A model generated the notes under the pieces. That model did no database searches. It saw nothing but the letters and a program-made list of their open reading frames with translations, and was not told the origin of the DNA. This document shows positions 20,448 to 50,800 of a stretch of 64,000 nucleotides of DNA, one piece after another. Positions within the stretch are counted from its first letter, which is position 1. Every line of letters starts with the position of its first letter. Where the stretch lies: assembly GCA_002633005.1 (NCBI GenBank), contig NMRA01000340.1, forward strand, positions 295,435 to 359,434. The letters run 5' to 3'. The DNA is from Phoronis australis. Its lineage: Eukaryota; Animalia; Phoronida. The translations under genes were made by a program, and so were the position numbers.

Positions 20448-22738
20448 TCTTTTTTCACTGTGATATATATTTATTGAAGGATACACAGAACATACAAAGA
20501 AATAATAACAAACCCAGAAACCGCGAACCATAATATCTGGGTTGTAAACAATTCATAAATGAAACTTATATACATAGAGGTATATACAATTAAGTAGTAT
20601 CTAAAATAAGTATTCCAATACTTAGACATGCTATTACAGATACATAAAAACAAAAATATGTACAGATTCATGTAGGGAAATCAGATGCAACAATATTGAT
20701 AAACGGTACATAAAAATTTACTAACGTTGCTTAGGAGGAATTCGTTGAGAACAAAGTCAAGGTTAGGACTACCATTCAGTAATAATGTAACTCTAGTAAG
20801 GATATTATTACAAGAATTGAGAGCGTTAACAATTGATTGGTTATCATTGAGTGCACAAAAGAGTGAGTCTCTCAGGGATTCGATGAGGGGACATTTGAAG
20901 AAAATATGAGGATAAGATTGACGGTCACCAAATTTACAGTTTGGAGAGACATTACTAAAGTTGTGCCTGAACTTGTTAGAGTTGAGGAAAAGGCCACATC
21001 TTGATCTGTACAATGCTATTTCGTTATCGCGGGTAAGGGAGATTTGAGTCAAGGGTGTTGAGTTATCAAAATTATGAAAAACAGTTCTAAAATTATTTTT
21101 TATACTCGTAAAAGAGTTGCTTTCCTTAACAGAGACTGGAAGAGAATTCCAGTTGTTGATGCACATCATGACTGTAGACCTTCTGAATGCCTGACTGAAC
21201 GACGGAGGAATTGCANNNNNNNNNNNNNNNNNNNNNNNNNNNNNNNNNNNNNNNNNNNNNNNNNNNNNNNNNNNNNNNNNNNNNNNNNNNNNNNNNNNNN
21301 NNNNNNNNNNNNNNNNNNNNNNNNNNNNNNNNNNNNNNNNNNNNNNNNNNNNNNNNNNNNNNNNNNNNNNNNNNNNNNNNNNNNNNNNNNNNNNNNNNNN
21401 NNNNNNNNNNNNNNNNNNNNNNNNNNNNNNNNNNNNNNNNNNNNNNNNNNNNNNNNNNNNNNNNNNNNNNNNNNNNNNNNNNNNNNNNNNNNNNNNNNNN
21501 NNNNNNNNNNNNNNNNNNNNNNNNNNNNNNNNNNNNNNNNNNNNNNNNNNNNNNNNNNNNNNNNNNNNNNNNNNNNNNNNNNNNNNNNNNNNNNNNNNNN
21601 NNNNNNNNNNNNNNNNNNNNNNNNNNNNNNNNNNNNNNNNNNNNNNNNNNNNNNNNNNNNNNNNNNNNNNNNNNNNNNNNNNNNNNNNNNNNNNNNNNNN
21701 NNNNNNNNNNNNNNNNNNNNNNNNNNNNNNNNNNNNNNNNNNNNNNNNNNNNNNNNNNNNNNNNNNNNNNNNNNNNNNNNNNNNNNNNNNNNNNNNNNNN
21801 NNNNNNNNNNNNNNNNNNNNNNNNNTTGGCAATCATTTTGATCATCTTGCTGGTTATTAAAGCTGTGCCATCATTCTTATTGGGGTCAATTTCATTGAGA
21901 TACTTCCGGACATCAGTTTGATTAGCCGGGATGTCAGACAGTTGATTGAGACAACGTTCACGAAGAAAGGGAAAGTTACTTACTTCAGTTGGTGTAATGT
22001 GGCTTTTGTTCGTGAAAAATTTGAGAAACAAATCACACTTGTCACTACTACGTGAGGCTAGGTTACCATTATAGTTGATGACAGGATAGGAGGATTGCTG
22101 TTGACTGCCGCGTATTTTATTGATGATGTTCCAGTATTCTTTGGAATTCTTGCTTGCGCTGTTAATTTGTTGAAAAAGCTTGTGTCGGTGATCAGCTTTG
22201 GCTTGATTTACTAAAGTTTCAACCAGACGTGACTGCTCCTTGTATCTGTTGTAGATTATAGTGTTGTTAGATCTTCTGAAAGAGCTGTAAAGTCTGTTTC
22301 TTGTGCGGATTGCCCGTTTAACATTACTGTTGAACCACGGTTTGCTGTTGTGTTTAATTATCTTTTCAGTTGATGGGATGTTGTTTTTTAAGATTTCATA
22401 GAGAGTACTAGTGAAGAGTGAAACAGTGTCATCAATGTCGCCAGTGTTCAATATGGAATCCCAGTCAGTGTTGGTGATATCCTGGCGCAGTTTATCGGTG
22501 TCGACCTGATTATATTTCCAGTTGGTTCGAGTGGTGTGTTGTTCATTAACCGGTTTTTTAAGTGTTCGAGTGGTTTCGATAGTGTGGTGATCAGAATTGC
22601 CAACAGGAGGTAGTACAGAACATGAGTCAATGATACTCAAATTGTTTGTTATACAGAGGTCAATACATGAATGAGAAACGTCGGTGATACGGGTTGGCTC
22701 ATTAATTAGTTGTATGCAGTCATTAGACAATAAAATAT
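20448..22738 (-). mobile_element. 5'-truncated LINE (CR1/L2-like ORF2) nested in Academ
   Basis: Long open ORF2 segment (QLINEPTRIT..SCIDL..NSDH endonuclease C-terminus; KPWFN linker) 21826-22730 and C-terminal part 20681-21215; AATAAA plus short A tail at the left end; 12-bp TSD cattgcaatctt at 20436-20447 and 22739-22750; RT core falls in the N gap. Confidence 0.9.
21216..21825. other. Assembly gap (N run)
   Basis: About 610 Ns. Confidence 0.99.
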
Positions 22739-25700
22739 CATTGCAATCTTAACAACAGTTTTTTAATTTATGTATTTGTGTAAAATAATTGTATGTAGAT
22801 TTCGTTGTACTTTTTTAACTCAGATATAATGCCTCTTGGCGCATTCTGGGTTATGTACATGTATATTCATTGTATCGAAGATTTCGTAATAAACATTATA
22901 AAAAATAGATTGTATTACTTGGCAACCACTTTGTTTTTCGAGAATTGACCTTGACCTCAAAATTTAGGCAACCGACTCCATGAGTACCAGTGTGCCAAAT
23001 TTGGGGCTTTAATCCGAGGTGTAAACGTTTTCGGGTTAAGGGCTTGGACCATTACTTATGCCACAAAATGCAACTGACCTCAACTACGCGGAGAATGTTT
23101 AGTGGATTATTTATGACTTGATGGATTCTTTTTCAACGTTTGATGAAATCATGCAATATGAGAATTTTCAGGAAGATCGAAATCAGCTAATTTTTATGAA
23201 ATTAGTCAAGCACTGTATCCCCTGAGAACACAGAATATTTTTCACGGAATGTTTTCTTTGCCGAGGTGCGCGAGCAAAAATACCCGTTTTCAATGGAAAT
23301 GCTATGCAGCCAAGAAATTGGAAATAAGGGTTAAATTAGGATATGACAACGCAAAGAAAGAAACACAAACATGAATCCATGCATAAAATAGACTGCTGTG
23401 AGCATTAGCATACCTTTACTTCATTTTATGTGTTAAACTTAACGTTTAAAAATGTTAGCTAAGGTTATGAATGGGCAATGTCGGCATTCCCGTGCTGCCA
23501 TTATGGCGTTTTGTCCATGCCCATCTTGCAGAGTCTTAGTTAGTTTCATCTATTTACGTCATAATAAATGACAATATTCGCAATCCTCCTCTTGTTTTAC
23601 TCTGCAACATAGCTCGTGGGGTACCCCGCGCAAAATAGATTACGATAAAAACAGTGTCGAGAAAATGTGGGAACTCTATTGGAAAATGGAATCCGTTTGT
23701 GGTCAATTTGTTAACGCTGCTTTAGAGTAAGATCAAAAGTACTTACATTCCTGCATGCGACATAGCCATTAATTTCGAAAATCACCGAGAGAGAGCACGA
23801 AATCATACCAAACAGTCCTTAGTTCATCTATTCTATGCACTTATGTTGTGATAAACAGAGCTGGACTGGATGCCACTGTTCTTCCCAAGACGTCGGTGAG
23901 CTGTCCTTACCACGGCTCTGTGAGGTTTTGTCCCACTCAACAATACGCCTACCCTCGTTCACGTAAAAAAGGGCAGTGGGACCTTAAGTCTTGACCGTTG
24001 ACTTCAATCTCCAGTTAAGTAGGCTTAAAATACTCTGCCATTTAACAGAACTTTAGGTTGCGATAGCAGAAGATGTTAGTGCGATTTGGCTGAACTCTGA
24101 AAATCTGTTTTCTCGTCGATAATGTCACTTTAAACATCTTTTCCAGATTTTTTGTGCGTCGTTTTTCTTGTGTTCCTTGTTCAACATGAGGCTGCCGTGA
24201 TGACCAACGAGCTACAGCCTGAAACCGACAGCAGTGAGCTAGAACAAGATCTTAGCGAACTGACTGCCCGCAGTGAAAACGAGGCCAACGATGATAATGA
24301 CGAGGATGACGAAGACGACGAAAAGCCAAACATTGAACTCATGAAACGTTACGAAGATGTGGCAGAAAAGGAAGCGAAAGAAAACCCTGATAAGCGCTTT
24401 TGGTTTTGGCACCGTAGACGTCGTATAATCCACCAGAGTTAACACCACCATCGTCGCCTTTCTCACTACGGAAAAAAGTAATTTAGGTGTAATCTGACGT
24501 TAAGACGCTGGCTGTAAGGATCCCTGTGATCTGCTGCCTACCATGCTGGTTTACAAAAACCTATAAATAGTCCAGACTTGTTATGTATTTGCAGTTATGT
24601 AGAGTTGCAAATCAGTGAAAAAGCAATGACTCTGAAGACATGTCAAAACATCAATTCCTTGTTGAACTTTTTTTTCTGACTGTAATTAAAGTCAAGTCTT
24701 AGGGCGTTTGAAACTCCAAAAAAACAGCTGGATTTGACTTCCAGATTTTATGATAGCGTAATTACACAATGCCTTTGAATAAACCAGTAGCTTGCAAAAC
24801 TGTTGTTTCTATTGTCAGGTGAGACAATATTCCTCCTTCACAGACCGCAAATACAGTTAAGTAGTCTTTTTTCGTGAATACACTTCTGTTCTCACGAAGC
24901 ACGTGCTACAGTATTTTCCAGCACACGCAACTTACACCTCTGTCCCGTCAGATATGACACGAAATGTGGTTGATGCAAAATGAATTGCAATTTAGAAAAA
25001 ATGCTTTATAAAATAAAAAGTCCACAGTTACCCTGCGAAACGTGTTTGTTTGTCGTCAGAAATGTTTTAACATTTAAGTGTTAAAACACAGAAAGCGTCA
25101 CAACAAAAACACCCTTTCATGAGTGACTCCACGTTCTATAAACTCCAGGCTCAGTTAAGACCGAAGAAGAAAATTTGGCCATTTCACGAACACCATGTCA
25201 GTGTCGGTCTCAGGCTTTGGCGTAAGCTCAAGCGGGGGTTGGACACAATGGCGCCCTGGCAAGAAGCCCCCTCTGGTCGAAATCCCAGGTCGAAACCCAT
25301 ACCAATTTTGCGCTTGGTAAATGCCCCCGAGTCGACTTATCCCAACGTCGCGAACAATTTCGCGTTTGCTCCGGAATTCCTCTGGTTACGCCACTAATCA
25401 CCGTTCCACAATACACCGCCGGTTTCATTCACCATCTTGAATACGTACTTGCGTTGAGAAAACAAACCCCTTCACGTACGTTTCCTCCTGTGCATGTATA
25501 TCTAGTTACCTACTCATGGGATAAACGCATTATCAAGCGCAGTTTCTGTCACTTTCTCGTCCTTAAAGCGAAATCTGCTGTATTATTGCCTCTCCATAGA
25601 GGGCAATTTGGCTTGTTTACTCTGCTTAGTTCTCACAGTGCCCTCGCTGGTTCCTTGCGTGCCGCTAGGTACCTACTGTACGCAGGGAACCAGAGAGTGT

Positions 25701-26743
25701 CAGTATCACACCAATGTGCATGCGCTTCGCATGCGCAACTCACAACTGTGGAAACATTATCCATAATGTTTTGATTCTGTCAAAATCATTATCAATATCA
25801 TATAACGCATCCTCTCATTGGCTTATTGCACAAAGTATGACATAAAAACTGGTTAATTAATGTAGGGCCCAATTGTATGAAACAGTCAGAAATGGGGTCT
25901 CAACAACGGCGATTCGGGAAGCCGGCAGTGGGCACTACCGCTGCCTAGCTCTGGTAGGTGTAACGTAAAGTTATTGAAATTTTGTTAAAATATACCGACA
26001 TGATCAAGCACCAAGTGACCACCTGATGCAATACAAAGCTCATGTACCTGGGACAAATGAAGAAATATAACGCATGACGTATGTTGAAACATGGGTAGCG
26101 ATTTGGCCGAGGCATGGCCAGAGGGTAAATTCACACGACCACACATTTTGGCATTTTCATCGTGTTTCTTTGCCTGGCGCTAGATTTCTTTCACCCGTAG
26201 GAATATACGTCATGAAACGTTCGTCGTATAAGTATCTAGGGGGAAGGAAAACAGCAGAGCAGAATCGGTCGATAATCTTTAATTTCTCAAGTTTCGAATT
26301 AGCATATCAAGATAAAAACAAGGTAAACACACTTTTAATACTCATCGAACTGTTTTGACAACTAAGGAACTGGAATTACAACGAATTTAGTTGTAAACAA
26401 GTCAACGCTCACACAAGCCATCTTGACTCAGTCAAAAGGCGGAGAGTGGGCAGACAATATTGATGATATTGCAGAAAAACGTCGTTTGCATCTATAATTC
26501 CTGGTTATCTCTTCCTACTATCATGAAGTTAGCACTATATTTTACAATCGCAGCCTAAAGCAGTGCTCATGCAGGGACGTATTCATGGTCAACACCTTTA
26601 TTTGGACTTTCTTTCTTTTAAAGGTGCATTTCTCTTTGTTAAGATAAAAAACTATAATCAAATTAGACTTTTGACACCCACGAAATTAGTCTCATAGTAT
26701 TACTTACCGTGATTAGATTCTCCTTCTGTTAACTACACGACGA

Positions 26744-26936
26744 TGTTGTGAAGCTGTGGAGTTGTCTCCCTCAAAAACTGAAGACAACATCAAGTGGGAA
26801 GCTTCCACGCGACTCGGCGTTCAAAAGAGAGCGTCTGCTCCCTTGACTTTGTGGTATTCAGACTGACAAGTCGTCAGTTTGCACTGTCGTAACCTTTGGC
26901 GAGTATTTGGCGTGCCCTTAACTTGAATATACTACA
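26744..26936 (+). repeat. 5' LTR
   Basis: tgttgtgaagctgtgg...gaatatactaca, followed by PBS-like sequence. Confidence 0.93.
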
Positions 26937-26959
26937 TTTTGGTGGGAACGATGGGATCT

Positions 26960-29900
26960 CCATGGTCACTGAACAATGCCTCAGAGATGTCGGTGCGTAT
27001 CGACGCCTCTCGTGACAACACGCTTGATGCACTGTTCTCACTCAGCCTTTCCATAACGTTCTCACTTTTCTGTTTTACTTGTCCGATCACCATTTCCAGT
27101 TCTCCGATGGCGGCCATTTTGTCCGCCAAAACTGACGCGTACGTGACCAGATTGTCCTTTTGTAGAGCCAGCAGTCTGTTCTTCTGCACTTCGCTGTTCG
27201 CCTGTTCGTTAACAAGCACAAACTGTAACTCTTCAATCTGACACTGGGCGTCCTCAAACTCCCTCACGTTCCTCTACATCGCCTGCTTCTGTCGGGTCAG
27301 GTACGCCAGCTGGCCTAGACACACAGCCTCCAGCGACAGCATCTCGGCATAGTTCTTCAACTTTGCCTGAACATCAGGCACATACTTCTCCGGAGACAAG
27401 TGCAACAATTTCAGGCAATCGTTCACTTGTATCAGTTCTTTTCGATGCCCTTCATGGCATCCGTTTTCTCGTCCATCCGCATACTACAGTCGAGTGACCT
27501 AATTATCGGACGTTTTGACACATTTTGCATTATATTTAATTGAAAATACTACGGATTGTTGTAAATTCTTTGCTGAAATAAAGATTTACCTTCACGTAAT
27601 TGTTCTGTTACTATATCTTGTCACTGAAAGCCACATTTATGTTCCGACTGATCTTCAAAAAACACAACAACCAAACCTTCGGAGAACCTAAATATCGGAC
27701 ACCATGTTTCTCCATACGCCACACCGCGGAAAACTGACTAACCATGTAATGGCCGCGGGCACCTTGTCACCAAATTTCAGCTCGAGTGTTTTGACATATA
27801 TGCTGCTAGAACCCAGGTCCATTCGCAACAAAATTATCCATAAAATGAAATCTGATGACGGCGCCAAGTCGTTTCGATGAATTAGTGCAGACGACTAAAG
27901 CACGTGCAAACTCACTGCAGTTTTTAGTATCACTTAGGCTTCTTGATATGACACCCGCACGTGCGCGGTCGGGGTTTGACTCGAGTTTAAAAACAAACGA
28001 AAAAATGGAACAGTGACATATTGTCAGTTCAATGAGATGGTGCCATTGTGGAAAANGTCAGTTCAATGAGATGGTGTCATTGTGGAAAAAGATTTTATTT
28101 TCAACTTTTATAACCGATTTATGCGATCGTCCATTTTAGGCCGACTTGGGGGTCTAAATTGCACCCTCTCTCGGTGAAATCAAAACGAGGCAACGCTGTA
28201 AAAAACAAGACGGTGCCGGACATTTAATGCATTACAACGGAACAAAAATTGGTGTCATTTAATTCTCAGATTATGCTTCAAGTAAGATTCTATGAAATGT
28301 CCGATATTTAGGTTCCGTCCGATAATTAGGTACACTATGTGTACTCACACCACTCCGTATACTGGCCATCACCGTGCGACACTGTGCTATCAATGCCTGC
28401 GAGCGATGTGGCGACTCCTTACCATGCCCACCATAATATGTTGGACTGTCTGACATCAAGCTGCTGATGTCTTCGTTCAGCGTAGTCAATTTGCCTTCTA
28501 TCAAATCTGACTGCTGCCTGAGGGCATTATAGGCTAACTCTATCTCCCTATACTCCAACTGCAACTTCTGCAGTCTCGCCTGTAACAGTTTGACTGCCTG
28601 GAAACACTTGTCATATTTACCCTTCAGAGCCCTATACTCCTCTGAAACTGACTCAAAACTAGCCACAGACATGTCCTGTGTACACTAAGTCTAAGATCGT
28701 GAAGTCACTGCTAACATCCTCATGCCCGTTACCCAGTTGATAGTCATGCAACAGAACCACCATTTCATCAGTCAATCTTGTACATTCTCCGTCACTCGTT
28801 TCCAATTGTTCTCTTTGCTGGAGAACGTTCTTCTTTAAACGCACATTCTCCCTCCTTAAGTCTGCCATTTCTAAACTAGTAATATGAGTTTGCATAACAC
28901 TGACTCGCTGTTGTAGCCCACTGTCAGCGTTTTTCCCATGATGCACACTCTCCAACTCAGCAGTAAGATCACTTGTTTCTTTCAATGAGTCAGACAGCTT
29001 GCCTTCAAGCTCTGCGATCGTCTCATTCTTCTCACGTAGGATATCTGCCATGTCAACATCTAGGAGTCCACAATATTCGATTGCTTTTGGTAGCGTTCAA
29101 TACGCTGCTCTAATGAACGTATTTTTTCATTCAACTGCTTTCTTTCCATTTCAAAACCACTTTGAACTTCTTTAATTTTCATTTTATGATGCCATTCACT
29201 GCAACGTAACTTTTCCATATTCTCTTTTAACAATTTCTCAATACTTTGCAATTTACTACACTTCTCCTAAAACTTAGAATTAAAACTTCGTAACTATGCC
29301 ACCTCTTTAGTTAAATTTCTTACAGTCTTCGTCTTTTCCTCCAAATCTTTGCGTGATTTCTCCACCGACTCAGCCCTTTCCTTGCACAACCTATCAGCTC
29401 TCTCGAGCTTATTTTTCATCCTCGTAATATCCTCATCTTTTATGATAATCTGTCTCTTGGCTTGTTTCAAGTCACCAGTCAACTTCTTCACATTTTCCCG
29501 TTCACCGTTCCAGTTCTTGGTCGTCTGTTCCATTGCTAACAGTTGCAGCTTACCCTGTAGTGCACCAATCTCCGTCTGCTGTCTGTTAATGATGCCATTT
29601 GAGTCTCTTACCTGTCGCTTTAGTGTCTGCACCTGCGCAATGTATCGTGTCGAATCGGTAGCAAAATCATCCAGAGATTCACGATGACTGAGCCGTCCCG
29701 CTTTCAGCTGAGTCTTCAGTCAGACATTATCGTCCTGGAGATGGCTCACTTGTTTATGATCCTTCTCCAGCTGAGCTTTCACCGTCTCCACTGGCTCCAC
29801 ACAATAGGCAGGCTCAGCTTCCGACAAGTCAACCACCACTGTCGCTTGGTACCTGTAAGTGTTTTCTGCACTCCTGACGGACGCCTCCAGAGGAGGTGAC

Positions 29901-31757
29901 TTGGGTCGTGGTGAGCCTGATCGTGACCTTGCCAGTAGTCTCTCGGTGGGTGACATCATAGCAGGCGACTTGTGGTGGCGAGATGCGCTGTGCTTTCGCT
30001 GGTACAGTCGAGAGCTTGACTCAATAGGAGGCACCACCTCTTTGTCAATGATGTCATCAACTTCTTTCGTATTGACTGACGAGTCTCTATACGCCTCACC
30101 TAACTCAACCTGGTCCAGGTGCCGCGGTTTGTACGACGCCGGCTGGGCGGTTCCACTGGAGCGGCGATGCAGCTCTCGGATACACTTCTCCACCTCCTTA
30201 ATGGCCTGCTTCTCTTCAGATGACATTGTCGATGGGATGTCAGCTCTCTCGTCATGAGTGGTGGGACGTGGCGACGCCTGCTTGTGCTGTTGCGACAGGG
30301 ATAATTGCTGAGAAGGGTAAGCGGCGCTTGGTGCAGGATGACTGACGGTCAAGTCGGACGAATCAGTTGAGGACGACCTCCGTCGGCTCACTGACCTGGC
30401 CTCGGTCATATCATCTTCGATGTGCTTCACCTGGTCTGTACTGCGGGCGGGGTAACGACCGCCCAACACCCGGGTGTCCGTTTTCAACGTGGGTGGAGTC
30501 CTAACCCGTTTCGACACATCCTGCTTCAAACGGTCTTCATCATCGACGTGTCGCGTGGTGACGCGATCCTCGTCGGAACGACTAGAAAAATCCTTACGAT
30601 ACTCAGCACTGACGGCAGCAGTGCCATCGTTGGAGTGGTGACTAGATGACTTGGCCATCTGTATACAGTTTTCAATGGCTTGGATCCAGTTCTTACGTAT
30701 ACCTTGTGTCATGTCTGAAAATATGAAGGTGCCGCTTCCAGTCTGAATTTCAAAGCCCTTAATGCGCAACACGTCAACAGGTGTCACCTTCTCTCCAGTA
30801 GACTAGTCAATCCTGCCATCGAGCATATCGTTCTCCTCAGCCATGGCGTCCTTGTAGTACCTAAGGCCAGAGCCACTCAGCACGAACCAGTGCTTGCAAC
30901 AATCCCTTTCTGACTCTCCTCGTTTCACAAGCCAGCCCTTCTTCACAATGTTGCCATCCTTTTTGCCATCTGTATCATTGATAAGTTTCAGAGCGCCAAG
31001 ACACTCCTTGTTGGAAAATCTATTCCGTGGTGATGTGTCATCGAGATTTTGTGGGGTTACAGCAACAGAGAAGCCATAGTTTCTAAAAGGACTCGGTGAT
31101 TTGGACTCACGGAAACTGCCATGTGGCCGATTGCGGAGTCAACTTACTGTTTGCCCTCGACGCTCCCTGGAAGTCTTCGCCGTCGTTCTGGGTCCTCTTC
31201 GGAACTGACATCATTCTCAATATGCTTCACCTTCGGGACGCTAGCAAACTCATTAATTGTAAGGCAGAACTTTATATGGTACGGGTTTCACGGGCGCTGG
31301 CCTGTCGGGGGTGGTGAGCGATCCGAACAAGTTCTTGGACTGCTTTCTTCCCATGTATAGACTATCATTGTTATCATATTCGTAGTTAGCAACATCTAAG
31401 TCGTTTCGGGATCGTTTGTGTTCGCTCAGTTTACCGCCATCTAGACCATTGTTTTGATCCTGCATGCTACTATTCCTACGCACACCATCTCGCCCCAGCA
31501 ATACGCCTGAGGCTTGTGCGAGCCAGGGTACTTAATCTCGTCGGGAGGTGGTAGCCGTGCTGGAGCCTCACTTTCAGAACCCGACTCTTCCTGGCTTTCT
31601 CCCTCCTCGGATTCGTTGTCCTCGTCGCAGAGCCTCTGGTTCACGTACGTCTCACTATGGCTGCGAGACAGTCCCAATAGCTGTAGGTCTCTCTTGAGTT
31701 TGTTTGCGCGCTCTTCCTCGTAACGTACAATTTCTATGGGCTGGACCAGCGTTGAAG
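26960..31757 (-). pseudogene. MPRIP: Intronless decayed copy of an MPRIP/TRIOBP/outspread-family gene (PH domain + long coiled coil), antisense inside the LTR element
   Basis: Minus strand ~30960-30660 reads KKGWLVKRGESERDCCKHWFVLSGSGLRYYKDAMAEENDMLDGRID*STGEKVTPVDVLRIKGFEIQTGSGTFIFSDMTQGIRKNWIQAI, recognisable as the family's PH domain, followed by Ser/Arg-rich and coiled-coil ORF fragments down to the PBS; multiple stops and frameshifts; no evident introns. Confidence 0.85.
27484..28341. mobile_element. Non-autonomous Tc1/mariner-like element inserted in the captured gene
   Basis: Inverted repeats acctaattatcggacg / cgtccgataattaggt near both ends, TA at both flanks; AT-rich interior interrupts the coiled-coil frame. 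Confidence 0.7.
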
Positions 31758-31920
31758 CATTATCGGTAGTATCTCCATGAGAACGTCACCGGAGCATGCG
31801 GAAGCCATCGCGCAGATCCCTTCGGACAGGCTCCTGATTGAGACAGACGCAACGCGTTTCCGGGGATAAAACCCACATGTCCAAAAAATCCCCATATGTT
31901 GGAATTGCGGAAAGCAACTA
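31756..31920 (+). pseudogene. TatD-family nuclease C-terminal remnant
   Basis: Plus-strand frame SIIGSISMRTSPEHAEAIAQIPSDRLLIETDATRFRG matches the TatD 'IPLDRLLLETDAP' motif. Confidence 0.65.
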
Positions 31921-32324
31921 TAATCCGGGAGGAGACTTTTTCGGGCTTAGCGGGGTTTAATAATTGGGGGTTGAGGGAAAATGGAATTTTGTTTTTGTTG
32001 TAATCATAGAATTTCCAAGTTTTTTGAAATATAAGTTATATAGTTTCACTATGTATGTGTTGTTTTATTTTGTGGCTCGGCAATTAACGTATACGATCGG
32101 GTATACGTTAAGGTAAGCGGGTATGAACACATATTTTCCGGGTATGGTTCATCATTGTTTTTTTTGCGGTTGTGGACTTATGTCCAGATAGTGCTCCACA
32201 TTGTTTCCGCGGTTTTTTTTTATAATCTCACTTCCGGGTGAGGATTGTATTCCCGTGGGGTGGGATGAAATTCAGAACCCTGGACGCCGAAGAACGCCTC
32301 TCCAAAAGATGTGGTGGGGAGGAA

Positions 32325-32517
32325 TGTTGAGAAGCTGTGGAGTTATCTCCCTCAAAAACTGACGGCAACATCTAATGGGAAGCTTCCACGCGACTCGGCG
32401 TTCGAACGAGCGCGTCTGATCCCTTGACTTTGTGGTATTCAGACTGACAAGTCCTCAATTTGCACTGTCGTAATCTTTGGCGAGTATTTGACGTGCCCTT
32501 ACCTTGAATATACTACA
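32325..32517 (+). repeat. 3' LTR
   Basis: tgttgagaagctgtgg...gaatatactaca, preceded by polypurine tract and followed by TSD acga. Confidence 0.93.
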
Positions 32518-34221
32518 ACGACTCAAAAATTTGCTATCGACATTATTGAGGTTGTCGAACCCTGAAATTGTGAATTTTACATGGCACATGCTGCACGCAT
32601 TTCCTGTGACTGGAGTTGGTAATTTAAAAATGAATCATGCTATAGTCAGGATTACTGCAAGACTTATTTGATGAGCCGAAAGGTCCAATTCAAATTCCGT
32701 CTTTTGACCCGCTAAACATGCCAAAATTGAACTTAAAAATCGTAATTTAAAAAATGGCTATGACAATGTTCTAAAATAAACTGATTGCTTTTCAAAAAGA
32801 AGTATTAACGGTATGAACAAGCAATTGGGAAAGCAAATCTATTCTGACAGCCTGGTTAACATTAAACCTGCCTCTTGGTTCATGTACTAAAATTCATTGT
32901 GTAGATAACATTCTACTTTCAATTTGCCTTGTTATGAACGGCAGCATGTCATGATTGTACTCCCGTGTCACCAATCTTGACAGAACACGTTCGCCTACAA
33001 ATGATAACATGATGTATTTTGTAATTTTACTTGTATGTTGTACCGTTTTCCCCAAACGCACGACTTTAAACTATAATAGGATATGAAATATACAACAGTT
33101 TTCTAACGTATAAAAACTTTCTTCACTTGAAATATACTGCGGAAGGTTTTACTGTAGCTTGCGATGTTTTTGTAAAATACGTCACGATAGTCATTGCACC
33201 ATAAAGAATGACGTAACAAATGACAGAACAAGATTGCTGTTTTGGTTACTGGAGGTGTGGCGCCTCACACAAATAGTTGGTACGATTACAGACAAAAAAG
33301 ATATCGGGAAGATGACGAATGAGAGACTCAAACTGTATACAGCACGGGAGCGAGCGAAAAAAGAATTGAAGAATTACGAGCAATTCGTTCTAAGAGGGCA
33401 TATTGCTTCAGTGGTTTTCGACAGCCCGGGTGAAGACGAGTATGATTCAGAAGACGACCGTTACCAGAGGGTATCCACATGAGACAAATTAACTCTGTCT
33501 GCACATTCTGAGGATGCCGAAAAACGGTTAAAACAAAACGAAAATTCAAGTAAAAACCGTGCACAGTGCTTGAGATCAAGTCGAGAGCTGCACGAGGATG
33601 AAACGGTGGCCAAGAGTGACAACTTGCCATTCCCTGGTTGGCCTAGTCTTGACAAAAACGGAAACAAAATAGAGCCGTGCATAACAGCAATACAAATTGG
33701 TCGAGTGGTCGTCAAGAGCCTAAAAGAAGTACCAACCCGGACGAAATAAACTTGAGAGAGGATTTTTACGAGGTTGCTTTCGTGATGCCGAAAAAGGGAT
33801 ATTACAAAACAGGGCAACATGTATGTGTAACAACCGAGAACGACATGGAGACATTATTCTGTTGAGAGGCAACGGTCACGAGGTCAAGACTAACGAGTCA
33901 CTTCTACCTGGATGTTCTGCTACTGCTGGCAAAAAAACGACCAAAACAAAAGCGACCTTTCCGAAAGAACCCTGTACATTTTTAGAATGTTAAAGAGCAA
34001 CATAGAGTCACCACACCGCGGACTGTGGATTGTTTGGGATGTCATGAATACGAGGGCATAGCCAAGGATGACGAGTTATCACCGCCGGCATGCTCTGGAA
34101 ATTCCAAAGGATGTAAAGGTGATAGCATTCCGAACTCCACGAAGAACCTCGGCTCGATTACAGGCGGTACTCTACACATGTTCCCGGAAGAAGTTACAGA
34201 AACTCGATTCGTGCCAGTACC

Positions 34222-34378
34222 TGGCGTGCGTTCAGTAGTCGCTAGGACCTACGCTAGGACCTAGCTAAAACCTAGTCTAAGTCACGTGTTCTCGTTTGAA
34301 ATGCACGGCAGTATTTTACGTAATCTCGTGAAGTCTTGCTTTTTAGCGAGGTCCTAGTGTTACTGAACGGGAGGCTGG
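34222..34378. mobile_element. Short MITE-like inverted-repeat element
   Basis: cgttcagtagtcgctaggacct ... aggtcctagtgttactgaacg inverted arms with internal gctaggacct tandem copies. Confidence 0.45.
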
Positions 34379-34388
34379 TGTACTAAAG

Positions 34389-35580
34389 TGATTTATATTT
34401 ATTGAAGAATACACAGAACATACAAAGAAATAATGACAAACCTAGAAATTGCGAAGCATTATAGCTGGGTTGTAGAGAATTCATAAATGAAACTAATATA
34501 CATAGAAGTATTTGAATTTAAGTAGTATCTAATATAAGTATTCCAATATTTAGATATGCTATTACGAACATATAAAAACAAGAACATGTACAGATTCATG
34601 TATGGAAATCAGAAGCAACAATATATATATACGGTACATAAAAATTGGTAACGTTGCTTAGGAATAATTCATTGAGAACAAGTTCAAGTTTAGGACTACC
34701 ATTCAATAATAATGTAACTTTAGTAGGGATAATATTACAAGAATTGAGAGCTTTAACAATTGATTGGTTTTCATTGAGTGCACGAAAGAGTGAGTCTCTC
34801 AGGTATTCGATGGGACCTTTGAAGAAAACATGAGGATAAGTATGATGGTCACTATATTTACAGTTTGGAGAGACATTACTAAAGTTTTGCTAAACTTGTC
34901 GGAGTTGAAGAAAAGACCGCATCTGGATCTGTACAATGCTTTTTCGTTATCGCAGGGAAAGGAGATCTGAGTCAAGGGTGTTGAGTTACCAAAATTATGA
35001 AAAACAGTTCTAAAATTATTTTTCATACTCGTAAAAGAGTTGCTTTCCTTAACAGAGACTGGAAGAGAATTCCAGTTGCTGATGCACATCATAACTGTAG
35101 ACCTTCTGAATGCCTGACTGAACGAGGGAGGGATTGCGTATGAGATAGAGGATCTCAAATCACTACGATGGCCTTGTCCAGTATATAGATCAAATATTTT
35201 TTAACAGAGGAGCTGTTGACACTGTTTATAAATGTGGTCATGTGAACATTGCGTTGAGTAGACAGCTTGGATCACTTGAGACTATTCAAAACCTTAACAC
35301 TATTGGATCCCCTGTAAGCTCCGGTTATGAGTAAGGCAGCTTGATACTGTAATTTCTCCGAATGCTGGATTGCACCAGTATTGGCAGGCTGACATATTAT
35401 ATCACAATAACAGATGCGTTGAAGTATAAAGGATTTGACCAGAACTTCTAAATGTGTAAAATTCAGATGACGAGAGACAAGCTTAAGTGGGTTAATTAGT
35501 TCCTGAATTTTTTGTTCGAGGTCCCGAACGTGAGGTGTGAATGAGAGCTTTTCATCTAAGCTCATAGTTATCCGCAAGTG
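34389..35580 (-). mobile_element. Second, more decayed 3' fragment of the same LINE family as 20448-22738
   Basis: 34389-35140 aligns closely with 20460-21215 (3' UTR and AIPPSFSQAFRRSTVMMC...); extends into post-RT region (LQYQAALLITGAYRGSN). Confidence 0.9.
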
Positions 35581-35935
35581 AAAACAAAAATGACTTGGAG
35601 TCGAGATATCATCGAGAAAAAGTTATAGTTCGTGAAAAGAAATGTTAGAGTTGCGTAGACATACTTGTGGATCATCATTTAGTTCTTATCTTCTTTAAGT
35701 TTTATAAATCAGTGATGCCAGTATACAAATTAAAATGTTGATTCAAACTTCCGTAACGTCTGTAAACACGAGTATGTAGACACGCATGATATTATGTTGA
35801 GTCTGTCGAAGAGGTACCAGTGTAGTTCATCTATTCAACTAAAAGTCACGTTGCATGCCGGTATTTGTGTGTGCGTCACTTTAACAAAGACGTGACGTGG
35901 TGACAGGAAGTCAGTACCATGTCGACTACCAGCAT

Positions 35936-38900
35936 ATGTCGTGCTGGTGTCGATGCTGCTGCCGGAATGATGAAGAGGGTGTTACCATAAGCACAGTTAC
36001 CACGACCACAGCCACAACCATCACTCTAGTTAAACCTTCTCCTAGCCAAGGTAAGGTGTCAAGAACGTTAATCCGTTTTTTATTGTAATATTTACAATGA
36101 GGGTAGTCCCATCAGTCAAAGTCTTACTGCTTTCCAGGCCACAGTAAAAACTTTATAACACGCAGTTCATAACAGTTCCATGGCACTTTGGAAGATGGTT
36201 TGCAATAGCCATATGCAATAAACTTAAGGGTTGATTGTAAAGAAGAAAGCGAACATAGGGTCCTGTTATATCAAACCCTCTCTCAGAACACCGGAATCCG
36301 TCTTAACATCTTGATGACGGCATGGGAGGAAACTCCTATTGGGCAACTTCTAATGGCTCACGACACTTGTTTTTTCGATTCTTGTCTACTTGGTGCTGAG
36401 CTATGTACTCTCAGTGGCGTTAAGTCATAGAACTCCATGAACGGAATGCTAACCTCAATCTTGCGCAGCTGAAGCTGCGTCGCGCATGTGTTGGTAGTTG
36501 TTTGCATTCGGTTCCTCCGGTGTTGTCTTTGCTATGGAGTATAGGGCTCAGGCTGGAAGTTTAGTTTAGTAAACGAATTAGTTGTAGTACTGCACTGTTA
36601 CCACCGGAAAAGCTCTTCCAAAATGCGATCAATATTTTTGGGACATTTTGCAATCTAAGGGCCAAAAGCATTGTAAAACTGAGGATCATGTGCTTGCATC
36701 CATGGCCACGGGTCGGTGTGTGGAAAGAATGACAATGGTAACTCCTTGACTAACGAGTTTATTCGTCTAATTTTGCCAAGATATCGCGAGATTACGTGAA
36801 CTGTATCTCAAATGTCTCGCTTGATACCATTGTGAAGGATGACTCAAAATAAAACAGAAAACTGTGAACATATGCTTATTTTGATAACAACAACATTCCT
36901 AGTTAGCGGACAATAAAAAACCAGCAAACTTTCAGTTCTTTATAAAACGGAAAACATTCGTTTTCCAAATAAGGAATAATTGAAGGCCATTTTAATTCCG
37001 ATAAGTGGCCTAAATCAAAACTTGTTTTTGAGATAAAGCACGGCTTTAAAACTGTTTTAATTGTAGACTTCAACACGACAGATTGTTGAATTTTACTGAG
37101 AGGAGAAATCTCTTGCTGCAAGTGAGGGGATGATGCATCAGCTTACTTGACAAGGGATGAAAGTTGGCGATTGCCTTTACAAATTACTGAGTAAAAATTA
37201 AGGAAAATTCGGTCGAAAACTAAAAAAGCTGCGGTACACGGATCTTCCAATGGAAAAAAAATGAGAAAAATAAGTAAGAAGGAGGTATTGAAATCGGCGA
37301 CTGGGATACATGTAGGTTGTGAGCGGAGAGGAGAAACAAGTAGAACCCGGGGAGACACTGAGGGAGACAAAAGGGTTATATTGGAGGCGACTGTAAGGGT
37401 TGCCATTAGTGGTGACAGGGGTAGGGGTGATTGGTGGCGACCATTGGAAGAATTTCTACTACGCCAATATCGGAGAAAACTATGACATATTCCCGCCCCC
37501 GTACAGCCAAGCGAGTATACGGCTATGCCTGGTAGGGCGCCCCCTCAGCTACTCACCTGGTAACTATGTATACAACAATACTGAAGAAACGTAGCTGGCG
37601 TGACCGTCGTGTTTCTGTGTTTCACGTTTGTATGAGCAAATTCATTCATATCGTTGTGTTTATCTGGAGTTAGTCATTGTGTGTTGTGTAAACAAATGAA
37701 CTGCAAAAGTAAGTCCATTTGGCCCCCAAGCACGTCACTTCCACCAACGTGACCGATGTTTGAGGAAAAAAGCAACATGAACTTATTTCCAATATTACCG
37801 GGTAATTCTTAATTCAGAAGACTTCACAGAAATTAACACCAGTCACCCATTTAACGCCGTTTTCAATTAATCGCCCCAGTTCTGTAAAGAGCTCAGAAGC
37901 AAACTAGGTTAATAACTGAAATTGCAACATATACTCCGACAATGATTATTTAACTACGGAGTTTTATAAGAGGAGTATTGTTTCTTTGTCACAGTGCGCT
38001 TCAAAGACACAGTGGATGTGCGCTCTTTGTATAAAATGAGAGGAGGACGTGTTCAAACTGACGACACTGGCGCGGTAAGTGACAAAACTATAATCAAGAA
38101 AAAACAATTAGCAAATAAATTGTGGTTTTAAAGAAAGCACCACAAATGATACACTTAAAACAACTTTGGACATATAAATACCCTAGTAATTTCAAATATA
38201 ACACAATCGTGTTTTCATTCTGAAATAAACTAAATAATAAAAACTGTGCCTTGTTTCATTAGTGTAACGACAATGCTGCGGGGGTTTCCCAGGGATTCCC
38301 GTGTCGTCCTAATATATCTATACACAAAACGTGGCGTAGATGAAGTAATTTCCCACGTTAGTTTTTCGTTGAGAGTACGGTGCACTGACGTCCTCATTGG
38401 TCTATTTTCAGATTCCTCTGAGTCGTGAGAGCTCCTCTGATGACACGCCGTCGTAGGTATTCAAATTTTCATTGATTTTACTATTCCACCTGTTGTTAAG
38501 CCTGCCTTGGCGTCTAATAAGGCATTCGGTGATTACCGATAAAGAACTCCTATCATCATCACCATCCCCGCAACTATCACTACTGCACAGGCAGACTTCG
38601 AATGCCGTAATGGGTGCAACCTCAAAGTTAGAAGGGAAATACCCGTGGAATCCATAAAAAGGACACACTTTTGGTAGAAGAGGGCCGGTGCCAATACCCT
38701 GTAAATCCGCCTATGCAATACCATTGCTCTAATAACCAATGTCTTCAACATTTTCACTTCCCACACCACCGTCGGCGCCGCCGCCACCACCGCCACCACC
38801 GCCACAAAACTGTTTAAATCAGCGGAGAAAACTGGTTCCGAAAATGCTGTGGTTCAGTATTACCAAATGTTGGACGGTAACTTGTGTTTAACACTAGCGG
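35936..38900 (+). pseudogene. Possible three-exon gene or relic: Cys-cluster N-terminus, Pro-rich tail (exons 35936-36050, 37995-38074, 38412-)
   Basis: Phase-compatible GT-AG exons give MSCWCRCCCRNDEEG...PSQ|VRFKDTVDVRSLYKMRGGRVQTDDTGA|IPLSRESSSDDTPS* (79 aa); the same frame continues through several stops to PTPPSAPPPPPPPP. No family recognised. Confidence 0.35.
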
Positions 38901-41900
38901 GAAACGGAACTTTACGAGACGTCGTAAGTTTTGACAGAAGTATCAGTTTCGACCCTGTGTTAAAACGAGAGAAAAAGTCCGTAGAATCTAGATTTATGCG
39001 TCGGAACATTTCGGGGCTACACTTTCCAAAGCTTACGTCGACACCAAACTGAAAAACTGTTATTGTAAACATATCATTCTCCTACATTTCAGGTGACCAT
39101 GGTGGAAAGAAAGAAAGAAAAAAACATCAGTTTTCGAATTTCTAAGAGTAAATTTATGTTGAATAATGTGTGCACTTAAACAAGCATTTGTTTAATTTTT
39201 TTCAAAACTTGAGATAGAAAAAAAATATTAGCATTCAATTTTACCTCTTTGATGGCCCTTTGGTCAGTTGGTCTGGTTTTATAAAAGGGAAAACAGCGGT
39301 CCTCAACCGGAAGCGGTGACGCTTTGAACAAGATTCTAAATCTTCAGAAAGCTATGTTCCTTCGCTTTTCAGTTCGGATAACTCCACTTTATGCTTAATG
39401 GCCGAGACGCCCGCAGATTTTCAATCCCATCTCCACACGTTACATTACACTTTCAAGGCATTCTGAGAAGTACTTTAATTAGAGTGTGACTTCACGCGGT
39501 AACACGAACTCTGCACAACGCGGTTACCTCTCGTTTATATTTCCACTTACGAGATCTTAACATACGAGTAGGATGCTGGGGCTGGGTAGAGGGCGAGTGC
39601 CCCCTCATGAAGCGAATGAGCGTCCAGGATNGGAGGCAGAGGCAGTCCAGAAAAAAATTACTCAAACGAAAATTTGACCACAAGTATCTATGCAAGAGTT
39701 ATCCGTTGGAGTCCTTTTTCAGGAATTTTGCGTTAGCCTTCCAGCTTTAACTACTTTTTTAATCGTTGATCGTCTGCGATCACACGAAAACGTGATTTTT
39801 TTTTCAGTATACATAGGCATCAGTACTTCGAAAAAGTACGACAAAACTGGCTATGCTCAAAGCTTTCAGAGACAAGGCAATATGGTTTTATAACTATGGA
39901 CATATCAGCACTTTTCCCAAGCACTTCCAAGAATATTTTTCGTAAGAAAAGCGGTATTAATTAAGTGAGGTTTTGAAGCGGCTCCTTAGGCAGCATACCA
40001 GGAACTAAGTAAATGCACCCTTTCAAAGTATACCCTTTAATGTAAATTAAGCTTTCCCTAAGCTTGACTACAATAAAATGGAACTTAATCTCGAGCTTTT
40101 TTTTACTCTCCGAAGGAGACTAAACTATAACCGAAATTTCCTACAGGTAGGTTAAGCTGTCGGTAAAAACAGAAAAAAAAACAGCGCGACCAAAATCAAA
40201 TCAAAGACCTACAAACGTGACAAATGTTATTACCGGCAAAGTGTAATCGCCTCGTCTGCTTTTCAGTGAATGTGAGATTCAAGCTTTTTGGGAGAGTGCG
40301 AGGAACCGACGAATATGTACTTTCTTCAGTAAGCACAGTTTAAAAGCAAAGTGGTAACTAAAAGGTATCTCAATGTTTCATGTGGTATATTGTAAAAGAG
40401 TATACAACAGAAAGTAAATAATAAAAATGTGAAAATACGACCATTGGCGTTAACGCAAGTTTATTAGAAAAGGGTCACTGGTAGCGGCTAGAGGTATTTC
40501 CGTGGCAACGAAAGCGCGCTCACAATTTGACCTATCGCCAGGATTTCGAGTGACGGCTTAACTGACCATTTAGAACGTAGAATTATTGACACACCTTCGT
40601 TTCCAAGCCGCCATTTTACAAACAACACGGTGCCGGGTAACACTTATTGTTTGTTAGTTGACATTACGCAAGGGGGCGGAGTTTGCGATAGGTCAATTTG
40701 CTACACCAGATCATGTTTTTACTCCTCTTTCTGTTTTTAACCACAAGACTTGAGCCAGAGCAGATTCGCATGTAAGTAAGTTTTTTTGGGAAAGTCATTC
40801 AACGACGTAAATACCATAATGAAATGTGCAAAAAGTGCAAAGATAACCTATTGGCGCAGGTTGTGGGTTGTGAGGGTTGTGGGTCGTGGGGTTCGAGGTG
40901 TGTGGGGTCGAGGGGTTTTTAGAACAATTTGCCTGTAACCTGTTGTCACAAATTTCCCATCCCTTCACCTCTCCCGGTTTCCAACTCTTCCCCTGGATGT
41001 AGTTTTGCGTTTGCAAGTGTATGTTACTGGGGGGGGGGTTCACGAGCCCCACCTATATACGCTTTCTAATGTGCCGAGTAAACGAAGGACCCATTTGCAA
41101 TAATCACCAATGAAAGTATAAACCATTTTTAATCTACATGTATTGCGTTTTGGAATAAACTATACGACCTGGTCGTGTCTTCGATCGAGGTATTTGTGTG
41201 AGGCAAACACAATTGTTATTCCATAATCTTTATTGTAGTAGCAAAAATCAAATAACGCCACAAATGAATTAAAGCAATGTATACAATGCATTGCAACACG
41301 GAAATCACAATAAAATCATGCAACAGATAAATTACTTCTGACAATCTAAATTCAGAGTCATTGATATTTATGTACATATGTGTAGTTTGCTGCCGGATTA
41401 TGGAGCTTATCAAACAGCGTGACACATGGTACGTGGTGTACAAAGAACAAGTATCAGTTTATTACAAACCAGTGGCACATACTGTGACTTTGGTGGGTGC
41501 AATCGATTAATGTAATTGATTGGAATTACTTAAGATAAAATAAATATTGACCAAAACATTATAATACAGCTAACTCCCAAAATATGGCGGCAATCAGTCA
41601 TGACAAGGGATAACCATACATGCTAGTTTATATTAGACAAAGGGACCTGCCTGTAAAAACTAATTATTTGGCTTATGTGTAATTTTCTACAAAATACATA
41701 GGCTACAAATACAACAGAATATTAACTACAATATACATGTAACACTATAAATGCGCAAGTTTTAATTCTGATATAGAACAAATGCAATCCCAGAAAAACT
41801 AACGTTACACCAAATGCAACTTTGAAGATTCTAGCACCAATCATTGACGCATGGGCTTACATGCTAGAATTCAAATCGCATAATAAAATCCACTCAAGCC

Positions 41901-47883: not shown

Positions 47884-50800
47884 ATGACAGTCTCAAATCT
47901 AAACGAAACAGAGAACTTTGTGATGGACAGTCGAATATCCACTTCTATCAACTGGGATGACGCCACGTGGATCCTGGCTAGTTCGTTCATCATCTTCACG
48001 ATGCAGTCGGGTATGGCACTTGGCGTACTTGTGCGTTAAGGGTAAAACAGGAGTTTCTTATGCATTTTGCTTCGGTTGTTGGATAATCCAGTAATCGATA
48101 CTTTCAACACATGTGGCGTACGCAATTCTGTTGCGCATAATTAATAAAAGAGCTCTTAAGTCTACTTTGCTATTTTGTTTCACATCGGCGCGATTTATTT
48201 GTATTATGTAATAATGCAATGTCTTGCAGGGTTTGGCCTGTTAGAATCGGGTTTGTCAGACACGAAGAACGAAGTCGACGTAATGGTGAAGAATGCAGTG
48301 GATGTTATATTTGGTGGACTGTCATTCTGGATCTTCGGATTTGGGCTCTGCTTCGGAAAATCTGAATTGTCCAATGCGTTTGTCGGTGTTGGCTACTTCT
48401 TTGTTCATGCAAAGGAGGATGAGATGGGATTCGTTTATTCCTGGTTCTTTTTCCAGCTAGCATTCGCCACGACTGCCACAACTATCGTGTCAGGTGCAAT
48501 GGTAGATAGAATGAAGCTTACCACTTATATCGTGTATTCGTTATTGAGCACACTGACGTATAGTTTTCCAGCGCATTGGTTATGGGCTGAAAACGGCATC
48601 TTGAATGTTCTTGGGGCTGTCGACGTTGCAGGGGCCGGACCAGTTCACTTGGTTGGAGGGGTATCAGGTTTGGTGGCCACACTGCTCCTTGGACCACGCA
48701 CTGGTCGCTTCGACACGAAAGATCCTCCGCCTTTGGGAAGCCCTACGAATGCCATTTTAGGCATGTTTATGCTATGGTATGTATTAATTATAGAGATTCG
48801 GAATTTAGAACATTTAAAACTTAGAATGCGTTTACACCTTAAAGGGCACTGTAGTCAAAGTAATGTTGCAGTTGATTGGTTCCAACATGCAAATAAAACA
48901 CATTTGCCCAACTTGTCCGCTAAACAAAAGCTCATTCATAATTATTGTCAAAAGACTGAGATCCTGACAGCTATCGCTGATTGGCTGATCTGCCAGTGAC
49001 GTGGCTGTTGGGGTATCGATCTGCTTTTCACATTCTTTGCTTATGCCATATTTGTGAAGAGTTTACATCGTATTTTATCATTGTATCAGTAGTACTTATT
49101 TTTTTACTGTTTGCCACAGTGCTGTAAAAGGTTCGCCATGCCTTTTTGTATGGCTCCTGGTTGTTCGAACTATTTGAAAAAGGTGTCTTCTAAGGGGAGG
49201 GTCATCGCATAGGCCTACCATCGCCGGGTTGCCCAAGCCTTAGCCCAAAGCTGTATACTAAATATACGCGTTTGCGCCGAGATGGTTAAAAATGAAGAAA
49301 TAAAATCTGACTCAAAATTAGTGTCATTAAAACTACTCTCATCCTTGAGTAGGCCTAAACTAACTTATTTAGCGATGTTGGAGAAGTAAGCGGTCATTAA
49401 TCGGCTGCTGTTAAAATTGTGGTGCGTTTTCCTGAGTCGGCTTTTGGCGATTACGTCACCTGACTTTTTCGCAATTTCCTTTCCCCGATTCTTTTATCAA
49501 CTGTTCTTCGCTGCCGGCACAAGGTTGCGTACATGTCACAACAAATTATCGGAACTTGTTTCATTTCGTTACAAGTTTTTAGTATTCTAATACCAGCCAA
49601 CCGAATTTCAGAACAAATCTTGCTGCTGCTAAGCTGTCATCATCTCCCCGAAAGCTGTCGCAAAATTTCAGGAAATGGCGCGTGTGCCGCGTCACGAGAG
49701 GGCTGTATTTGAAACGAACGACTATACTTGTTTGTCTCTGTCATCGCCTTTGAGGGTGCCGGACGTTAACTCCCATTGGAATTGAGAAATTAAACACCAG
49801 CCATAGATAAAATATTTTAATACAGTGTGTGCTTCCACTTGTCTTTTCACCCCAAAATCAAGTACAGTATATTTAAACCAATTCCAACATCGTTATGTCT
49901 TTTCAACTTTGATTCCAGGTGGGGATGGTTAGGATTTAACTGTGGGAGCACTTTTGGCATTTCTGGAGGCAAATGGAAGCTTGCCGCATGTGCCGCCGTC
50001 TCCACTCTGATGTCATCAATATCAGGCGGGGCGGTCGCCTTCATTCTGAGCTACGCCCGTAAAAGAAAGTATGACGTTGGCATTCTCATTACGGGACTGT
50101 TGGCTGCCCTTGTTAGTAGCACGGCATCATGCGCCATCACTCATCCGTGGGAAGCTGTAGTCATCGGGGCAATAGGGTCAGCACTGGCCATATTGAGCGA
50201 GCCAGTGGTGGCCAAACTTGGAATTGATGACCCTGTGGCCGTAATCCCCGTTCATTGTGTGGGTGGAATATGGAGTCTTCTATCAACTGGGCTGCTAATT
50301 GACAATGTAAGGGCAAAGTGAATGCTACTTAGACATCTGAACATCGTTTGTAGACTTAAATATTCAGTTCCTTTGCTTCAGTGATCGTAACTGGCGCCAA
50401 ATAATATTATCTATAGGTCATGAATAGAAATAAGAAACAAAATATATTACACATACTCCACTCACTTGACATAAATACCTACGTGCGCAGGCCTCGCATG
50501 TGGGCCCATTGCACTGATCACCTGGAAATATTTTTATGCTTTATTGATATATGGTTAAAACCGAGCTGAGGAGCTAGAAACCTGGCTCAAGGGTTTAGCA
50601 GTGTGACCCGGTGGGACATGAACCCACGACCTCGAGTAAAGAAAGCGGACACTTATCAACCAGGCCACACTGCCTCCTCCAAACTTCATGAACATTGGCC
50701 TTGAGTTTTTCAAATTTCCTTCTTTCCCATGGTGCATCACCCTATTTTATTTCTCAGCTGATGTGCTTTGCATAGCGGTGTTTTTTTCGATGTAGTTGGA

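Follow-up and report, generated by a model that had tools for sequence, protein, structure and literature searches.

A TatD nuclease remnant in a non-autonomous LTR element of the phoronid Phoronis australis

Introduction

Juno and Vesta are LTR retrotransposons of bdelloid rotifers whose third open reading frames (ORF3s) encode a DEDDy exonuclease or a GDSL esterase, with function untested, as described in the main text of PMC5408684, where TatD is mentioned 0 times. LTR-mediated retrocopies form a second group of related structures, and the accessible text of PMC5131818 describes the replacement of internal ORFs in them at microsimilarities, while transduced genes lie mostly in the sense of the element according to the accessible text of PMC11963269. 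An 18-nt PBS and a polypurine tract (PPT) are motifs in the ICTV description of the Metaviridae (PMC7879559). Human TATDN1 and TATDN3, which belong to the TatD nucleases, act as 3'-5' exonucleases mainly on ssDNA and as AP endonucleases on dsDNA, and the N-terminal (G/A)xN or HxH motif is class-defining for these enzymes (PMC10085689, accessible text).

A search of the openly accessible literature found no TatD in LTR elements among the papers listed, and the ORF3s of Juno and Vesta are the nearest case described there; work in subscription journals, reports in Repbase or supplements on bioRxiv may bear on this. TatD is absent from the main text and supplementary files of a metazoan Ty3/gypsy survey (PMC13524379), as far as these are accessible, and PBS motifs sought in the accessible supplements were not found. 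In the accessible part of a giant-squid paper, TatD is mentioned where the legend of a Hox cluster labels TATDN2, which is irrelevant to LTR elements.

The window analysed here is a stretch of 64,000 nucleotides (64 kb) of Phoronis australis DNA (contig NMRA01000340.1). It contains a non-autonomous LTR element at 26744–32517, the interior of which is an antisense host gene with a PH domain and coiled coils, and which keeps the end of a TatD gene next to its 3' untranslated region (3' UTR). The reads and contigs compared with the window come from public runs of the same species: the DNA contigs X1 and X2 derive from a single sample, possibly the one from which the window itself comes, and X6 to X8 are RNA reads of a separate study, with 0 reads placed from X8, a count that carries no weight as a test.

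Structure of the LTR element

The features of the element are the following:

26740–26743: left target-site duplication ACGA, 4 bp, repeated at 32518–32521
26744–26936, plus strand: 5' LTR, 193 nt, TG...CA, with 15/193 differences from the 3' LTR (K2P 0.082)
26940–26957, plus strand: PBS-like 18-mer beginning with TGG, 3 nt past the LTR (motif as defined in PMC7879559)
26952–31764, minus strand: captured host gene with PH domain, long coiled coils and many stops (Pfam and read ends)
27485–28342: MITE-like insertion of very high copy number, 857 nt, with terminal inverted repeats (read joint skipping 857 nt)
31762–31764: 3' capture junction, about 3 nt fitting both sides (loose read ends)
31762–31851, plus strand: conserved core of the TatD remnant, 30 codons ending in ETDA (PDB, Pfam, Atlas and profile)
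31852–31950, plus strand: degenerate C-terminal tail of TatD, with stops at 31867 and 31921, then RRLFRA and a stop at 31948–31950
31951–32312, plus strand: T-rich 3' UTR (T 0.37), common to the sister copies (contig comparison and composition)
32313–32324, plus strand: polypurine tract (sequence)
32325–32517, plus strand: 3' LTR, 193 nt, TG...CA, paired with the 5' LTR

The presence of an LTR element, asserted in a preliminary description made from the sequence alone, is borne out by the paired LTRs, the 4-bp target duplication, the PBS-like site and the PPT. Neither gag nor pol ORFs are seen in the interior of the element, by the ORF list and Pfam; no Rfam match lies within the element and no tRNA gene within the 64-kb window. 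Paired LTRs, PBS and PPT are all present, as in Ty3/Gypsy elements, and are common to all LTR superfamilies, so that alone they are not diagnostic. The PBS-like 18-mer has a putative resemblance to a tRNA-Leu PBS, and it is on this resemblance that we take the parent family to be probably Gypsy-type.

The PH domain of the captured gene is matched by PF00169 (E = 2.2e-9, one stop being read through as X), and the architecture of the gene is presumably MPRIP/TRIOBP/outspread-like. A protein search for the captured gene gave no scoring match among 7946 candidates. DNA contigs about 8% diverged from this host gene also run for 535–557 nt without an intron. Related RNA (15 reads, X6) and related DNA hold extra sequence at 29874 and 29538, so the captured gene of the window carries deletions relative to its parent. 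The MITE-like insertion at 27485–28342 is absent from the related copies and from their RNA; its 857 nt are skipped by DNA and RNA joints, and its summed depth in X1 is about 27,000–39,000.

Several other features lie in the 64-kb window. Two duplicated short ORFs on the plus strand (10991–11401 and 24134–24442), within a repeat 13.1 kb apart, begin with a hydrophobic segment, carry an acidic stretch and a KR site, have a tail rich in His and Arg and look like secreted-peptide precursors; the first has no clear Pfam match. Exons of an ammonium transporter gene are found at 48160–50321 on the plus strand (PF00909, E = 8e-53 and 2e-32). The duplicated fragments at 21126–22748 (minus strand) and 34388–35622, one of which is broken by the assembly gap 21216–21825, we take by eye to be LINE-like. 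A long inverted repeat has its arms at 4053–5877 and 52643–53870, with a weak THAP-like ORF in the left arm (5366–5809, E = 0.1).

Identity of the TatD remnant

The plus-strand frame from 31756 translates as SIIGSISMRTSPEHAEAIAQIPSDRLLIETDATRFRG and reaches a stop at 31867–31869. The preliminary description had read a conserved C-terminal TatD motif on this strand and had named the Pfam TatD_DNase model as the check. The sole Pfam match of the frame is indeed TatD_DNase (PF01026, E = 1.1e-4, 22.2 bits), in which frame residues 1–32 align with positions 173–204 of a model of length 253. This score lies below the whole-protein cut-off of 27 bits because the remnant is a fragment only. In a PDB search at E<=10, 4 of 4 matches are TatD proteins (YcfH, a 3'-5' exonuclease from yeast, and two entries for TATDN1), with TATDN3 absent among them, and in the feature matches of the ESM Atlas all 30 of 30 are TatD clusters, with a top score of 0.91.

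A Pfam score below the curated cut-off leaves room for a random match within non-coding DNA. The 64-kb window amounts to 2136 six-frame segments, over which about 0.2 chance matches to some Pfam family are expected at 1.1e-4, and the Pfam match is therefore not decisive by itself. A profile of 18 TatD proteins, which partly depends on the fragment because some of its members came from fragment-seeded searches, gives the remnant segment 30.4 bits against 3.0 bits for the runner-up segment in the window, and its maximum on 40 locally shuffled windows is 7.0 bits. The TatD match, furthermore, begins at a junction defined by reads. The shuffle test and this junction, together with the uniform PDB and Atlas matches, lead us to reject the random match, to which we give next to no probability.

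The ETD motif of the remnant aligns with Glu220/Asp222 of TATDN1 in the PDB search alignment, and Asp222 of TATDN1 touches a metal ion (PMC10085689, accessible text). The TatD sequence at 31762–31950 is a remnant and not a working enzyme: positions 1–172 of PF01026 are replaced by the captured gene, and the N-terminal (G/A)xN/HxH motif and the full barrel are gone with them. With about 170 of 253 model positions missing, the N-terminal metal-binding motif included, it cannot be an enzyme.

By sequence the fragment stands apart from every reference compared, a set in which the host's own TATDN1-3 do not figure. It is identical to tick TATDN2-like proteins at 11–13 of 30 residues, to viral-contig and unnamed TatDs at 11–14 of 30, to human TATDN1 at 11 of 25 (one gap) and to one bacterial TatD, which was retrieved by the fragment's own pattern, at 16 of 30. 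The 30 codons favour no one subfamily, identity to all references being 11–16/30.

Searching a library of 1.84 billion proteins with the fragment gave two matches, of which P0001 is a tick TatD repeat and P0002 a repetitive non-TatD protein, set aside as a chance match; the protein search with the fragment gave 0 scoring among 2 candidates. A two-sequence profile matched 14 of 222 candidates, 13 of them tick TATDN2-like and one an unnamed TatD of bacterial look. In the metagenome locus scan 3 of 568 stretches matched, all bacterial and one of them a TatD; in the viral locus scan the single match among 31 stretches was a chance phage match and was discarded. TatD occurs in 8 of 41 viral stretches, and in the 5 of these with ORFs listed no retroelement gene is seen by eye. 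The 27-nt LTR pattern has 0 matches in the metagenome and viral contigs. The protein-library, viral and metagenome searches gave no retroelement TatD and no retroelement relative.

The capture junctions

The counts for the junction and for the sister copies refer to the matches listed over 31560–32320 (14 of 44 loose ends and 16 of 68 pieces). Records on the TatD side enter at 31762/31763 with other letters before this point, in at least three X1 contigs, at least two X2 contigs and at least three X6 reads, and these preceding letters are mutually similar by eye. From the host side, 6 X6 reads depart behind 31764, and among the matches listed a 355-nt X2 contig also stops fitting there. The two sets of loose ends place the junction at 31762–31764. 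Since TatD-derived DNA begins there, positions 31756–31761 are DNA of the captured gene. The earlier statement that the motif is truncated exactly at the capture junction thus stands for its 5' end; the span then given, 31756–31920, is really 31762–31950.

At the other end of the captured gene, 16 X7 reads exit the element before 26952, 6 bases inside the end of the PBS (26952–26957). The apparent microsimilarity at the junctions is about 6 nt at 26952–26957 and about 3 nt at 31762–31764, lengths which are taken from where reads stop fitting, and chance could produce an overlap such as the one of about 3 nt at the 3' junction.

Sister copies of the element

A contig of 420 nt (record 1 in X1, record 10 in X2) lacks the captured gene and ties TatD directly to the same 3' UTR. 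It starts with 27 letters, which are followed by TatD 31762–31865 with 12/104 differences, then by 117 letters that replace 69 of the window, and then by the 3' UTR 31935–32106 with 17/172 differences. Sister copies without the captured gene extend upstream of the junction in one DNA sample, at a divergence of 10–15%. At least four contigs have one common third-position difference at 31833. A more distant sister, X2 record 13, spans 31966–32293 (48 differences, 8 gaps) and continues into a purine tract resembling the PPT of the window. X2 record 9 crosses the junction with 8/131 differences and is a second chimeric copy. The linkage is made through overlapping records, as no contig among the matches listed reaches from TatD to the LTR. 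No gag, pol or integrase is seen joined to TatD in these records, the longest upstream extension reported being up to 255 letters.

The spacing from ETDA to the stop is 48 codons in the 420-nt sister against 32 in the window, whose tail is about 48 nt shorter and has two stops before RRLFRA. In 17 reference TatDs, the number of residues after the motif is 50–56 in 10 and either 18 or 62–133 in the others, and the 48 codons of the sister would fit a full-length TatD tail. To judge from length and motif, RRLFRA and the stop at 31948–31950 would be the natural end of the ORF. The RRLFRA tail has no Pfam alignment; weak Pfam matches to HscB_4_cys and Zn_Ribbon_1 are located between the stops in the degenerate part and were rejected.

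In sisters free of the capture TatD adjoins the same 3' UTR, so that its presence in the family predates this capture. TatD is the last ORF before the 3' UTR, the PPT and the 3' LTR and lies in the sense of the element. We hold with little doubt that it is cargo of this LTR family. The preliminary description had left the choice between an accessory gene of an unusual LTR lineage and a second captured fragment; the sisters at 10–15% uphold the family cargo and speak against a fragment taken together with this host gene.

The same records could be read in another way, in which a host TATDN gene, taken in the same or a nearby capture, supplied the remnant as its last exon and the T-rich region as its 3' UTR, and the apparent sisters are that host gene and its alleles. 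An upstream-extending contig has a depth of 20.6, which is inside the 14–32 range of X1 contigs identical to the window and speaks for such a gene. Three upstream-extending contigs in one sample, the contigs that share the difference at 31833 and several 3' UTR versions 10–15% apart are against it. Multiple upstream contigs and diverged 3' UTR versions mean that the sister versions outnumber two alleles. A host UTR, moreover, is not expected to end in the PPT of an element, and one version continues into a PPT-like tract. A host TATDN exon is for these reasons very improbable, and the cargo of an LTR family remains the preferred reading.

RNA of the element

The RNA sets place 1303 reads (X6) and 1259 reads (X7) on the element, of which 41 and 45 are at least 99% alike. 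As most reads are 90–99% alike, most of this RNA comes from related loci and not from the copy in the window. In the captured gene outside the MITE, the first mates are nearly all on the plus strand, as would be seen if the library were stranded and read RNA of the minus strand, the strandedness being not on record. Element-sense reads are confined to TatD, the 3' UTR, the LTR and the MITE, with none over the captured gene. Across TatD, 3' UTR and LTR their depth is about 2 or less (over TatD, in X6), and this hints faintly at a capture-free sister, which would yield such RNA.

Minus-strand reads that are 90–95% like the window cross the junction, the 3' UTR and the 5' LTR, and 13 reads each in X6 and X7 exit at 26744 into a different flank. 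These minus-strand reads and exits make it likely that a copy at another locus gives transcripts in the sense of the captured gene.

Origin of the TatD remnant and of the captured gene

With a probability of about 0.7, the gene whose 3' end survives as the TatD remnant stood last, in the place of env, in the parent family of this non-autonomous element, a family which, as said, is probably Gypsy-type. Autonomous members would likely carry TatD behind pol. A host transcript may have replaced the interior of such an element during reverse transcription, from the PBS end to two thirds into TatD. In this scheme, plus-strand strong-stop DNA would prime on a host mRNA and later return to the minus strand at TatD, where about 3 shared bases would likely have let the copying strand rejoin the element. 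The TatD tail would have been carried along with the adjoining 3' UTR, polypurine tract and LTR, which replication needs, and the chimeric element would then have been copied further in trans. We infer that the antisense cargo and the junction overlapping the last 6 PBS bases are both expected from a mis-primed plus-strand transfer.

An older capture offers a different origin, in which a TATDN transcript entered an LTR family without pol, most of this TatD was later lost to the antisense capture, and the autonomous partner never carried TatD. The LTR family demonstrably takes up host sequence and multiplies with it, repeated captures of such a kind are described in the accessible text of PMC5131818, and no linkage of pol to TatD is seen here. 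Against this stand the TatD and 3' UTR common to sisters at 10–15% divergence, one of which has a tail of TatD length, and the distance of the fragment from the host-type TatDs compared (human TATDN1 and the tick TATDN2-like proteins, at the identities given above). On balance we consider the older capture unlikely, and a last gene of the parent family is favoured.

Beyond the family, the remnant may be the fossil marker of an undescribed autonomous LTR lineage of animals, present in several invertebrate phyla, with a predicted active TatD exonuclease/AP endonuclease as third gene, whose targets would be the lineage's own products of reverse transcription or the nucleic acids of host silencing; we rate this proposal somewhat below an even bet. 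More tentative still is the function by analogy of the intact parental TatD, a putative metal-dependent 3'-5' exonuclease/AP endonuclease that might trim or clear faulty single-stranded products of reverse transcription.

If TatD is regular cargo, a repair-type nuclease would join the short list of LTR-element enzymes that occupy the place of the retroviral env, and among the multicopy genes annotated as 'TATDN' in invertebrates some would be transposon genes. The role of accessory nucleases for retrotransposons would become testable. As the remnant is dead, the locus itself has the value of an extra occurrence. For gene capture through a mis-primed second strand transfer, the antisense capture that begins at the PBS end offers a clean candidate.

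Comparison with known systems

The cellular TatD nucleases (TATDN1/2/3; E. coli TatD, YcfH and YjjV; PMC10085689, accessible text) share the ETD motif with the remnant, which differs from them in being reduced to 30 codons, in having lost the N-terminal motif and in occurring as several diverged copies that adjoin an LTR 3' end, against one host locus. The LTR-mediated retrocopies of Tan et al. 2016 (PMC5131818, accessible text) are similar to the element in that a partial host gene replaces the internal ORFs with short shared sequence at both junctions, in the retention of both LTRs and in further rounds as a non-autonomous element; here, unlike there, an antisense host gene goes together with a 5' junction that overlaps the PBS end. 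With Ty3/Gypsy elements (Metaviridae, PMC7879559) the element has in common paired LTRs, an 18-nt PBS-like site and a PPT, and differs in being without gag or pol to place it; that family has a place for a third gene downstream of pol, env being the sole one named. Juno and Vesta, as described in the main text of PMC5408684, have an intact ORF behind pol and a DEDDy fold, whereas the element of the window has a remnant of a TatD TIM barrel and pol is absent. What they share with it is an enzyme gene in the env position, which closes the internal region on its 3' side and recurs throughout the family; the rotifer enzyme compared here is a 3'-5' exonuclease.
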